Source of the DNA: Caedimonas varicaedens
GTDB lineage: Bacteria > Pseudomonadota > Alphaproteobacteria > Caedimonadales > Caedimonadaceae
Assembly: GCA_001192655.1 (NCBI GenBank)
Contig: BBVC01000022.1
Coordinates: 1-32,000, forward strand
Reading direction: 5' to 3'
Length of the DNA: 32,000 bases
In this document: positions 23,958 to 27,267 of the stretch, piece by piece
Position numbering within the stretch: the stretch's first letter is position 1
How the letters are laid out: every line of letters begins with the position of its first letter
Translations under genes and position numbers: made by a program
Notes under the pieces: generated by a model
Databases searched by the model: none
Told to the model about the DNA's origin: nothing
What the model saw: the letters and a program-made list of their open reading frames with translations, nothing else

Positions 23958-24605
23958 TCAGAACTTTGTGAAAAGCTCCTGGCTCTTTTGGTTGAAAATC
24001 CGTGGACCTTCCATCATTTTTCCCCGTTGATAAAAATGCCAGGCACACACCTTGCCATTTTCATAGTACTGGGTGACGTTTCCTTCTAAAAGATTATCCA
24101 GATAGGGTTCCGTTTTCAGAATGGCGCCGCTGGGATAATAGGATTTTGCAATGCCTTGTTTCTTTCCTGCTTGATGAGGGATGACTTTAGCAATATGCCC
24201 AAGAGCACTAAACAAAACCATGTCGCCCTCCAGAATGCCATGAGCAAAAGGAGCTTCCATTCTTTTGCTGCCTCCGGCATCATAGTAGGTGGCAATACCA
24301 TTTAATTTACCATCTATAAACGGTACAGTGGCATACAAATTTCCATCTCGATAGAACTCGCTGATACCGGTCAGTTTTCCTTCCCGAAATTCAAGCTTGC
24401 GGGAAACAGAACCATCCTTATTATAGACAAGTGTGGCGCCATGTCGTTTATTTTCAAAAAAAGTAACCCGTTGTTTGATCGCATTCGTTTTGGGATCATA
24501 GTATTCGACCACGCCTGTGACTTTACCGTCTTTAAGAGCGCGCAGTTCAATTAGACTACCTTTACTATTTCTGATTTCCTGATAGGTTGTTTCTGATTCT
24601 GCCAT
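23958..24605 (-). CDS. MORN-variant repeat protein (YwqK-like family)
   Basis: 215 aa made of 7-8 tandem ~23-aa units of the form xxGKxxGxxxxYYxxGxxxxxxxF (for example REGKLTGISEFYRDGNLYATVPF and IDGKLNGIATYYDAGGSKRMEAPF). No signal peptide. The start is 7 nt after the vgrG stop. Confidence 0.75.
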   Translation of the reverse strand: MAESETTYQEIRNSKGSLIELRALKDGKVTGVVEYYDPKTNAIKQRVTFFENKRHGATLVYNKDGSVSRKLEFREGKLTGISEFYRDGNLYATVPFIDGKLNGIATYYDAGGSKRMEAPFAHGILEGDMVLFSALGHIAKVIPHQAGKKQGIAKSYYPSGAILKTEPYLDNLLEGNVTQYYENGKVCAWHFYQRGKMMEGPRIFNQKSQELFTKF

Positions 24606-24612
24606 TTTTTAC

Positions 24613-27267
24613 CTATGCGATGAAGACTGTTGCGGCCGTGATTGTCATGTTTGCTCCTGCCGTTATGCTCGCTTCTGCGCCTGCCTCGACATTATAGGCC
24701 ATCTCTGCTGTTTGGGTGATAGAGAGCGCATTCATTTCCATTTCAAGAGAAGCGCTCAGCGTCATTTCTGCCCCAGCTTCTTGTGTGATGGTTGTACCAG
24801 CTTCCTGGGTCAGCGACATACCCGCGGACATGTTGATACTTTCTCCCGCAGAGATACGAATACTTTGGGGAGTAGAAATATCGATGCTCCCCACTGATTC
24901 AATTTTTGTTGTACCGGTAACAATGATGGAAAGGTTACCGTCTACTTTAAGGGAATAATTTTGAACCACATGATGGTCATAGTTTCCATTGACGAAATGA
25001 TCTTCGTTCCCGCTATCCACTTTTATACTGCGGTTCCCTACTGAAATTTGAGTTTCCTGATTGCCCTGATCTATTTTGAGCGTCTGATTCCCCTGAAGAA
25101 TATGCAGTGTTTCATTTCCCTGATTAATTTTTGAGTCTGAATTTCCTTCTTTAATGCGAAAGATATAATTTCCTTGTTGAATCAGGCACTTAATCGTTCC
25201 TGTAGTGACTGAGATGCCTGCCATACCTGTTTCAACGTAGGACATGATATCTCCTGATGTTACCCCAAAAAGCATATTCCCCGTTACAATTTCTTGAGAA
25301 AGATTTCCTGAAGTAATGCCGACAGTGTAATTGCCGGTTTCGATATAGGAAAGGCTATTTCCCTGGTTAATCACCGTATGCTGTTCTCCTTGCAAGATAT
25401 GCGTTTCGTGCTTTCCCTGTTCAATTTTAATAAATTCGTTCAGCTCTCCACCAATCGTATATTTCGTGCCTTTTTCAATTTGCAAGAAATGATGTCCATC
25501 GGGAATGATCATATTATAACTGGCGCCTTGCCCCAGGAGCTTGGCTGTTTTGCTGCCTGACAGCATGGTAAGGTTGTCGTCTCCTATTCCTGCAGGAAGT
25601 GCTTGACCCTCTGGAGTTGTTTTTGGAACACCATTAGTCCCGCCAATCGTCATCTCACGGCTTCCCTGATCGATCCAAAACCAGTAACTTCCCTTTTCTA
25701 TCCAGTCTGTAACATTTTCCTTAACGCGAAAATCCCGATCTTTTTGGGAAAACAAATAAATTTGCTCGGAGCCTTTCAGATCTTCGAAACGAAACTCATT
25801 AAATCCTTCTCCGCCTTTCGTGGATCTTGATTTAATGGTACTTTTTGTGGGTTGTTCCGGAAGATAGGGCGGCATATTGTCAGAGTTGTACACAGAGCCA
25901 ATGACCAAGGGTCTGTCAGGATTACCCTCAATAAAGGTTACGACGACTTCCATCCCTATGCGAGGCGTGAACAGGATTCCCCAGTTATTGCCTGCCCATC
26001 CTTCCGCGACTCTGACCCAGCACGAACTTTCCTGATCCGCAGGGGAAAGGCGATCCCAGTGAAAAATAACCTTGATGCGTCCATATTTATCCGTCCATAT
26101 TTCCTCATTTTCAGGGCCTGTCACCCTTGCGGTCTGGGTTGAGTAAATTCGAGGCTTGCGTGTACGAGAGGGTGGGCGAAAGGGGGTTGTAGAAGGAAAT
26201 GCCTGAAACGCATTTTGGTAAACATTCCCCTGAGGTTGTAGTCGGCCATCCATATGACAAGCATGTTCGACCGTATGAAGTACATATTCGCGATTGGCAT
26301 CAGCGCGGGGATGTCCTTTGAGTGTAAAACGGTGACCAGGCAGAAAAAAGGGAATCGTTGAGGTTCCTTCAATCGCTTTATGTGGCGCTTCACTTTTTTC
26401 CAGCTGAAGCTTGGCAAAAGTTTCCAGTTGGCTTTTTTCGGGCTTATCTTCCTGATCATAGTGGCCGGGGTAGGCGTAAATTTCTCCACCCTCTCCTTGT
26501 CCAAAAGATTTTGAGAGAGGATTTGTGCTGGCAAGCGTGAAGTTATAATCATTGAGTGTATGAGATTTGGAGACAACCTGCTGTTTTAAATGGCAGGCCG
26601 TAATATGTCCTAAAAAGTCAGCAGAGGGTTGGGCAATTTCAAATGCTGCTTCTTCATAAACTTCACAGGCGCTATAGGCAGAAGAATCTTCTCCGAAAAC
26701 AAGGATGTGTTTGTTATTTTGATGCTCAAAGAAATAAAAAATGCCTTCTTCTTCGAGAAGACGGCTGACAAAATCAAAAGCAGTCTCATTATATTGAACG
26801 CAATATTCCCGTGCTTTATTCCCGCATGTACGCGTTACATCCTTGAAGTCGCGAACTGCGTTCTCATTCAAAATAATCTTTATAATTTCCATAGGGGTTT
26901 TATTTTGAAAAATGCGACAGTCCTGTACAAATTTCAACATCCAGAACAAGGGATAAATTTTTGCTTCATAGTAGGTTGCGTTGTCATCATTGTGCTTTGC
27001 GGTAATCAGCTGTTTGAATTGTCCAACGACGCCATTGAAATAACGTGTGTGACCATGGCAATCAATAGAAATAGTTACGAGTTTTCCCATCAAATCATCA
27101 AAGGAAATCTGAGGGTTGTTTGAAACAAGTCTAGCCGTATATTCAAAGGGTTGTGAGAGAATTTCCTGTCCCTGAAAGGATTCCATAATGACCGCATTTT
27201 CTCCCAATGGGGTGTTAATCCTAAGAGAAACTGATTTCTGACTTTCGACAAGGGTTGTCGTCGCCAT
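24613..27267 (-). CDS. vgrG: type VI secretion system spike protein VgrG
   Basis: 884 aa. The gp27-like N-terminus (..FEYTARL..YFNGVV) and the gp5 OB-fold signature RIGMEVVVTFIEGNPDRPLVIGSVYN are present. A long C-terminal beta-helix of degenerate xGNx repeats follows. No appended enzymatic domain is obvious. Confidence 0.9.
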   Translation of the reverse strand: MATTTLVESQKSVSLRINTPLGENAVIMESFQGQEILSQPFEYTARLVSNNPQISFDDLMGKLVTISIDCHGHTRYFNGVVGQFKQLITAKHNDDNATYYEAKIYPLFWMLKFVQDCRIFQNKTPMEIIKIILNENAVRDFKDVTRTCGNKAREYCVQYNETAFDFVSRLLEEEGIFYFFEHQNNKHILVFGEDSSAYSACEVYEEAAFEIAQPSADFLGHITACHLKQQVVSKSHTLNDYNFTLASTNPLSKSFGQGEGGEIYAYPGHYDQEDKPEKSQLETFAKLQLEKSEAPHKAIEGTSTIPFFLPGHRFTLKGHPRADANREYVLHTVEHACHMDGRLQPQGNVYQNAFQAFPSTTPFRPPSRTRKPRIYSTQTARVTGPENEEIWTDKYGRIKVIFHWDRLSPADQESSCWVRVAEGWAGNNWGILFTPRIGMEVVVTFIEGNPDRPLVIGSVYNSDNMPPYLPEQPTKSTIKSRSTKGGEGFNEFRFEDLKGSEQIYLFSQKDRDFRVKENVTDWIEKGSYWFWIDQGSREMTIGGTNGVPKTTPEGQALPAGIGDDNLTMLSGSKTAKLLGQGASYNMIIPDGHHFLQIEKGTKYTIGGELNEFIKIEQGKHETHILQGEQHTVINQGNSLSYIETGNYTVGITSGNLSQEIVTGNMLFGVTSGDIMSYVETGMAGISVTTGTIKCLIQQGNYIFRIKEGNSDSKINQGNETLHILQGNQTLKIDQGNQETQISVGNRSIKVDSGNEDHFVNGNYDHHVVQNYSLKVDGNLSIIVTGTTKIESVGSIDISTPQSIRISAGESINMSAGMSLTQEAGTTITQEAGAEMTLSASLEMEMNALSITQTAEMAYNVEAGAEASITAGANMTITAATVFIA

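Follow-up and report, generated by a model that had tools for sequence, protein, structure and literature searches.

The closest characterized homolog of the protein considered here is TseF of Pseudomonas aeruginosa, which has 178 residues and three MORN motifs and whose gene adjoins vgrG3 (Lin et al. 2017, PMC5379069). TseF pulls down VgrG3 and VgrG1b, was found in the culture supernatant and on outer membrane vesicles, and has homologs in diverse bacteria that mostly co-localize with a VgrG homolog (PMC5379069). One type VI secretion system (T6SS) cluster, T6SS-b of Paraburkholderia phymatum, carries vgrG (Bphy_5985), a gene labeled "YwqK family antitoxin" (Bphy_5986), and a PAAR-like gene (Bphy_5987) (PMC8356804). 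Among Holosporales, the T6SS is conserved in almost all genomes, Holospora excepted, according to a 2025 review (PMC11909080). Midha et al. 2021 (PMC8163844) describe at least four T6SS core gene loci in a conserved arrangement, one of them [ywqK-vgrG], in the families Bodocaedibacteraceae, Paracaedibacteraceae, and Caedimonadaceae; Caedibacter (now Caedimonas) varicaedens belongs to the genome set compared there. George et al. (bioRxiv 10.1101/719211) place a YwqK-family protein beside VgrG in all diplonemid endosymbionts. Here we analyzed a 32,000-nt window of DNA from C. varicaedens, which lives in Paramecium and belongs to the order Holosporales (assembly GCA_001192655.1, contig BBVC01000022.1, positions 1 to 32,000), in which a vgrG gene is directly followed by the gene of a 215-residue MORN_2 (YwqK-family) protein. 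The pair is a locus of the already published type, and what we add is a re-reading of it, not a new system. We hold with moderate confidence that it is the vgrG locus of a dispersed C. varicaedens T6SS and that its MORN_2 product belongs to the TseF family and rides on the spike as a passenger or accessory.

Both genes were recovered with exactly the ends assigned to them in an earlier note on this DNA, and the profile searches suggested there placed both proteins above the cut-offs of the VgrG and MORN_2 families. The larger protein scored 564.8 bits against TIGR03361 (cut-off 186) and 412 bits against TIGR01646, and is therefore a member of the VgrG/TssI family. Its Pfam matches were Phage_GPD, Phage_base_V, Gp5_trimer_C, and Gp5_C, and a Caedimonas varicaedens protein at NCBI matches it with 100% identity. 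Its last 359 residues (526–884) matched only Gp5_C repeats and, weakly, DUF2345, and a domain profile search found no toxin domain in this segment. An evolved (toxin-carrying) VgrG is thus ruled out, in line with the full-length, toxin-free spike described in the earlier note. The C-terminus aligned with those of relatives as an octapeptide-like beta-helix.

The smaller protein scored 56.9 bits against PF07661 (cut-off 29.6), which makes it a MORN_2 protein. Its AlphaFold2 model (predicted local distance difference test score of 94.9) is all-beta, with 17 strands forming ~8 hairpin repeats, in agreement with the 7–8 MORN-variant repeats that had been counted before. The top Foldseek matches of this model were MORN1 crystal structures (6t69, template modeling (TM) score of 0.63). 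Besides MORN_2, Pfam and NCBIfam returned only a weak match to the LIC20035 adhesin. The known T6SS adaptor families DUF4123/Tap, DUF1795/Eag, and DUF2169 gave no match in either database, so that the protein does not belong to a known adaptor family. By eye, no N-terminal signal sequence was evident.

A survey of other genomes, proposed in the earlier note, revealed that the vgrG–MORN linkage is conserved in eight Holosporales-type and seven proteobacterial loci. The eight are distinct from the window locus and have vgrG directly before MORN_2 with differing flanking genes (L001; L003/L006; L004; L008; L013/14; L015/16; L017; L018/19). Each of the close MORN homologs (50%–68% identity) is encoded directly behind a vgrG for 876–887 residues. 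Both open reading frames (ORFs) of the window are intact and 50%–77% identical to their orthologs in four other genomes, where the junction is kept. When the MORN proteins and the C-terminal parts of VgrG were compared with those of relatives, their identities were 67/69%, 56/58%, 50/55%, and 36/38%, respectively; identity of the MORN protein follows the C-terminal part of VgrG and not its better conserved N-terminal part. The L008 VgrG has only 701 residues, with the MORN partner kept. Neither the window nor those relatives' loci with listed neighbors have a toxin gene beside the pair. With a hidden Markov model (HMM) of Holosporales MORN proteins, no copy was detected near vgrG of Bryobacterales, Desulfomonilia, Desulfatitalea, or Ningiella.

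Outside Holosporales, when 72,556 plasmid and chromid records were searched by tblastn with the window MORN protein, the best matches were in Azospirillum sp. B510 (6e-15) and on P. phymatum pBPHY01 (Bphy_5986-type, 4e-13). Further matches were to Cupriavidus, Paraburkholderia, and other Azospirillum records, and to a P. aeruginosa record (TseF, 3e-6). Seven loci were compared: P. phymatum pBPHY01, Paraburkholderia PGU19, Cupriavidus P-10, three Azospirillum replicons, and the P. aeruginosa H3-T6SS. In these loci, 1–10 nt separate the end of vgrG from the MORN start, and a PAAR-like DUF4280 gene adjoins the pair in all seven, as well as in L017. The vgrG–MORN_2 synteny spans three classes, namely Alpha-, Beta-, and Gammaproteobacteria. 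The profile of the Holosporales proteins aligned with that of the proteobacterial VgrG-linked proteins with a probability of 99.9% over 207 collinear columns (hhalign). The gene order in the P. aeruginosa record is tssH, vgrG, the gene of a 178-residue protein labeled "YwqK family antitoxin" by NCBI, and DUF4280, as in the final part of the H3-T6SS cluster. The species, the position, and the length identify this protein as the putative TseF (PA2374); it scored 55 bits against PF07661. The earlier note had called the pairing non-canonical and MORN_2/YwqK proteins not known as VgrG-linked. Neither statement stands, as the same order recurs in Holosporales-type loci and other proteobacteria and had already been published for TseF (PMC5379069), P. 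phymatum (PMC8356804), and the Holosporales [ywqK-vgrG] locus (PMC8163844).

Some of the compared records have features of their own. The L001 proteins (GCA_050954885.1, labeled as a metagenome-assembled genome (MAG) of Janthinobacterium lividum) are 60% (VgrG) and 56% (MORN) identical to those of Caedimonas, and the neighboring genes (NDUFA12, rimP-nusA-infB) are alphaproteobacterial in type, which points to either a mistaken species label or a contaminated bin. About 1.5 kb downstream of the pair, L015 (11126..15685) and L016 (10712..15272) carry genes for a portal protein, S78 protease, capsid, connector, and Phage_HCP, a head-gene set that looks like a gene-transfer-agent or prophage remnant. 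A small gene for an OmpA-like outer-membrane beta-barrel adjoins vgrG in three Holosporales records. It is located downstream of the MORN gene in L008 (9792..10541), and divergently upstream in Odyssella (L012, 9141..9770) and Paracaedibacteraceae (L013, 9140..9766); this gene may have a bearing on the absence of TssJ that has been reported for Holosporales-type systems. The P. aeruginosa record L145 (NZ_CP137515.1, "plasmid" pHPA0170-2) is 91 kb long and holds a xanthine dehydrogenase gene in addition to the H3-T6SS end genes. Despite its plasmid label, this record is probably a piece of a chromosome.

The MORN gene of the window starts 7 nt past the vgrG stop, which confirms from the sequence the tight coupling that had been proposed. 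The earlier note had seen no independent Shine-Dalgarno sequence for the MORN gene, but a partial one (AGG) overlaps the vgrG TAG stop, 6 nt ahead of the MORN ATG. At the same place, relatives have AAGGA or GAGGA, with GGAG also seen, and their junctions are 1–23 nt long. In the Paracaedibacteraceae locus L013, the vgrG–MORN spacer is 91 nt long (12320..12410) and holds a hairpin, TTTTTACCTCTCC...GGAGAGGTAAAAA. Tight coupling of the pair is therefore not universal. Upstream of vgrG, two direct repeats (27458-27490 and 27499-27531; 33 nt each, 91% identical) are built around the inverted motifs TTGGATTAA / TTAATCCAA; this region (27458..27550) looks like a putative operator. A promoter and terminator scan, which included the intergenic region between vgrG and the gene of the major facilitator superfamily (MFS) transporter, gave nothing above chance.

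According to the reading that we prefer, the MORN protein would be made from the same transcript as VgrG, via the 7-nt junction with its stop-overlapping Shine-Dalgarno sequence. Its single-layer beta-hairpin sheet would then bind the VgrG spike, probably at the C-terminal beta-helix; such binding may be expected because TseF pulls down VgrG3. The protein would exit the cell along with the spike on sheath contraction and would bind a membrane-associated ligand outside. Because the bacterium is obligate intracellular, this ligand would be a host component rather than the Pseudomonas quinolone signal (PQS). Of the three options left by the earlier note (a VgrG-loaded effector, an adaptor, or an orphan immunity protein), the first matches TseF, whereas immunity is disfavored by the lack of a toxin domain or gene and by a label that reflects the repeat type. 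More tentatively, the Holosporales "YwqK antitoxin" could be no immunity protein but a passenger or tip accessory that is universally bound to the spike of a reduced T6SS directed at the host, where the MORN sheet would bind a membrane component. If so, it would be a key, so far unrecognized factor of the intracellular lifestyle of these protist endosymbionts. Holosporales endosymbionts are considered to interact with their hosts mainly by the T6SS, with no substrate known. Placing the vgrG-adjoining gene with TseF would give the first concrete candidate for a substrate or accessory, which an immunity protein would not.

Several observations weigh against a TseF-like passenger. We infer VgrG binding, secretion, and the target of the Holosporales MORN protein by analogy, and the PQS and iron role of TseF cannot apply in Caedimonas. 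Even for TseF, secretion was "drastically reduced" but not abolished in H3-T6SS mutants (PMC5379069). A DUF4280 gene adjoins the pair in Pseudomonas, whereas none is found beside the window pair, and with the HMM of Holosporales MORN proteins no MORN gene was detected behind one Odyssella vgrG (L012). Similarity scores are inflated in repeat proteins: against the TseF-group HMM, long generic MORN_2 proteins, which have more repeats, reached scores equal to those of the Holosporales proteins. HMM scores thus did not set a "TseF family" apart from generic MORN_2, and the assignment to the TseF group is therefore based mainly on synteny, length, and collinearity. None of three generic MORN_2 genes checked (two short ones and a 560-residue Martelella gene) adjoins vgrG. 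Finally, a protein whose gene keeps its place in three proteobacterial classes resembles a machine accessory more than a typical effector. This last point leads to an alternative that we regard as rather unlikely, namely that the MORN_2 protein is not secreted and is no effector itself, but serves this T6SS subtype as an accessory, i.e., an adaptor, chaperone, or structural piece that readies the VgrG tip for DUF4280 or other cargo. In favor of such a role, its gene lies between vgrG and DUF4280 in members of the Alpha-, Beta-, and Gammaproteobacteria, is located within the core cluster in L008, and is retained in highly reduced endosymbiont genomes. The MORN sheet is also suited as a protein-binding scaffold, as known from the structures of MORN4 and junctophilin. 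However, TseF was detected in the culture supernatant and on outer membrane vesicles (PMC5379069), the MORN protein has no similarity to DUF4123, DUF1795, or DUF2169, and most Holosporales loci lack a conserved downstream cargo gene to load.

Bacillus subtilis YwqK neutralizes the LXG toxin YwqJ, and this precedent, together with the names in the NCBI and JGI databases, speaks for a YwqK-type immunity protein or antitoxin directed against a VgrG-borne or other toxin. Both endosymbiont genome papers (PMC8163844; bioRxiv 10.1101/719211) name the MORN protein immunity or antitoxin, a reading based on the protein name alone; their accessible parts draw no link to TseF. We consider this function very unlikely. 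VgrG residues 526–884 contain no toxin domain, the partner is kept by the short L008 VgrG, and a neighboring toxin gene is missing both from the window and from those relatives' loci with listed neighbors. Moreover, TseF carries the same label, yet behaves as a secreted VgrG-binding protein (PMC5379069). The label tracks the repeat type (COG2849/PF07661) and not a tested function, and appears to be a name transfer from this repeat type. The published immunity reading is probably wrong, with TseF the better model, and where a T6SS is involved, the name "YwqK family antitoxin" given by automatic annotation should not be relied on.

Hardly credible in our view is an orphan module, either in decay or inserted recently, without a working secretion machine. 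The pair does stand alone, as the earlier note had observed: its direct neighbors are rsfS, def, and the MFS transporter gene, the rest of the window consists of housekeeping genes or IS630, and no other T6SS, PAAR, or DUF4280 gene (the latter sought by HMM) is present in the window. A hairpin element (the palindrome) and the direct repeats lie close by, and IS630 copies and a large pseudogenized duplication are found next door. On the other hand, both ORFs are intact, 50%–77% identical to orthologs in four genomes, and joined by a preserved junction. The GC content of the pair is like that of its flanks (0.39–0.48), and neither an integrase nor a target-site duplication was found at the pair. 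The palindrome is a generic dispersed element present on one side only; neither its arm nor the upstream direct repeat occurs in 19 other loci that were compared. The flanking repeats of the earlier note thus exist (palindrome at 23788..23933), but they do not mark an inserted module, and neither the GC content nor the dispersed, one-sided palindrome supports recent insertion. An isolated vgrG is the normal layout and no sign of a relic, because Holosporales T6SS genes are scattered over several loci. This scatter is typical of the order, in nearly all of which the T6SS is conserved (PMC11909080; PMC8163844), so that the suspicion of an orphan or relic spike is not supported.

The palindrome belongs to a family of hairpin elements with dispersed copies. 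Folded as RNA, the minus strand of 23780..23945 reached -71 kcal/mol (z = -9.7). Its 18-nt inverted termini, TAGACTTCTTTSGAAACC ... GGTTTCGAAAGAAGTCTA, each contain an inner palindrome, TTTCGAAA. When these termini were sought by a metagenome contig scan, they were found as inverted pairs 124–311 nt apart in 17 contigs (L021, L025, L027, L030, L032, L036, L038, L042, L043, L053, L075, L077, L083, L098, L123, L131, and L137), with a different interior in each. All nine copies that were folded (eight contigs and the window) formed full-length hairpins, with z from -7 to -24. The interiors are unrelated between copies, yet self-complementary in every folded copy. No Rfam match was obtained anywhere in the window. 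Judged by its sequence features, the family looks like miniature inverted-repeat transposable elements (MITE) or repetitive extragenic palindromes (REP).

The other end of the window contains a near-perfect inverted duplication of roughly 10.7 kb (1..10773 versus 11084..21857). It comprises the essential rseP-bamA-ompH-lpxD-fabZ-lpxA-lpxI-lpxB cluster as well as spoU, hemF, and a 261-residue ORF (322..1107 and 20750..21535, one in each arm), which has a hydrophobic, signal-like N-terminal segment and no Pfam match. The duplication is bounded by IS630 ends, whose 33-nt terminal repeat recurs at 105-133, 11056-11088, and 21721-21753, and an IS630 transposase gene is located at its edge (21749..22573). 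Compared to the first copy, the second has ~10 substitutions and seven one-base homopolymer indels; where the latter occur, the bamA, fabZ, lpxB, spoU, and hemF ORFs of this copy are truncated or split. Another assembly of the same organism has one copy of the cluster, directly adjoining def. The duplication is either a real IS-mediated duplication that is now decaying or a fold-back assembly artifact.

Table. Features of the vgrG–MORN_2 locus in the window and selected loci of relatives
Feature	Coordinates	Strand	Description
MORN_2 (YwqK-family) TseF-like repeat protein	23958..24605	minus	215 aa, ~8 beta-hairpin repeats
vgrG (tssI)	24613..27267	minus	884 aa; gp27-like hub, gp5 OB-fold, long C-terminal beta-helix
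vgrG–MORN_2 junction	24606..24615	minus	vgrG stop TAG 24615..24613; AGG 24614..24612; 7-nt spacer; MORN ATG 24605
Divergent intergenic region vgrG / MFS transporter gene	27268..27711		holds two 33-nt direct repeats
Imperfect palindrome, 146 nt	23788..23933		3' region of MORN gene; conserved 18-nt termini TAGACTTCTTTSGAAACC
L015/16			Caedimonadaceae MAG; vgrG then MORN_2
L013/14			Paracaedibacteraceae MAG; vgrG then MORN_2
L018/19			alphaproteobacterial MAG; vgrG then MORN_2
L017			contig with vgrG then MORN_2 and adjoining DUF4280 gene
L008			Holosporaceae MAG; core cluster tssB-tssC-(2 ORFs)-tssE-tssF-tssG-vgrG-MORN_2, pair at its end

Among the known systems, B. subtilis YwqK is the name source of COG2849 and of the NCBI label "YwqK family antitoxin" for PF07661-containing proteins. 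It differs from the window protein in that its gene adjoins that of its toxin, whereas the window has no toxin, and in its link to type VII and not type VI secretion. The relationship is limited to shared repeats. Eukaryotic MORN proteins (MORN1, junctophilin, and the SETD7 N-terminus) form a single-layer beta-hairpin array like that of the window protein (Foldseek TM score of ~0.6; sequence match of SETD7 at 1e-7). However, they are only 13%–18% identical to it, have other cellular roles, and show no link to secretion.

TseF and the window protein have several features in common. Both are small all-MORN_2 proteins with similar PF07661 scores (55 versus 57 bits), both carry the "YwqK antitoxin" label, and the tseF gene is located 10 nt past the vgrG stop on the same strand (7 nt in the window). 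Their similarity is significant by tblastn (3e-6) and in the profile comparison (probability of 99.9%), although repeats inflate such scores. TseF is shorter (178 versus 215 residues), with the first repeats missing, and the identity is ~24%. Its ligands PQS, FptA, and OprF are specific to Pseudomonas and have no relevance for a symbiont living inside Paramecium. The triads of P. phymatum, Azospirillum, Cupriavidus, and Paraburkholderia share with the window the order vgrG then MORN_2 (221–240 residues) and junctions of 1–8 nt, and their MORN_2 proteins are the best tblastn matches and collinear with the window protein over the full length. In contrast to the window, their VgrGs have 641–697 residues (884 in the window), a DUF4280 gene adjoins the pair, the genes are part of a complete T6SS cluster, and the hosts are free-living or plant-associated. 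The gene of TeoL of Cupriavidus necator also lies downstream of vgrG1, but whether TeoL is a MORN_2 protein could not be established, as the paper passages on it give no domain information.

A published counterpart is found within Holosporales. The YwqK-family protein of Ca. Bodocaedibacter is longer (357, which we take as residues) and belongs to an orthogroup other than that of Caedimonas. Ca. Bodocaedibacter vickermanii, a Holosporales endosymbiont, also has a DUF4280 gene among its T6SS genes, which is unlinked to the pair. By its family (Caedimonadaceae), the dispersal of T6SS genes over at least four loci, and the YwqK-family gene beside vgrG (PMC8163844), the [ywqK-vgrG] locus of Holosporales is the locus of the window.

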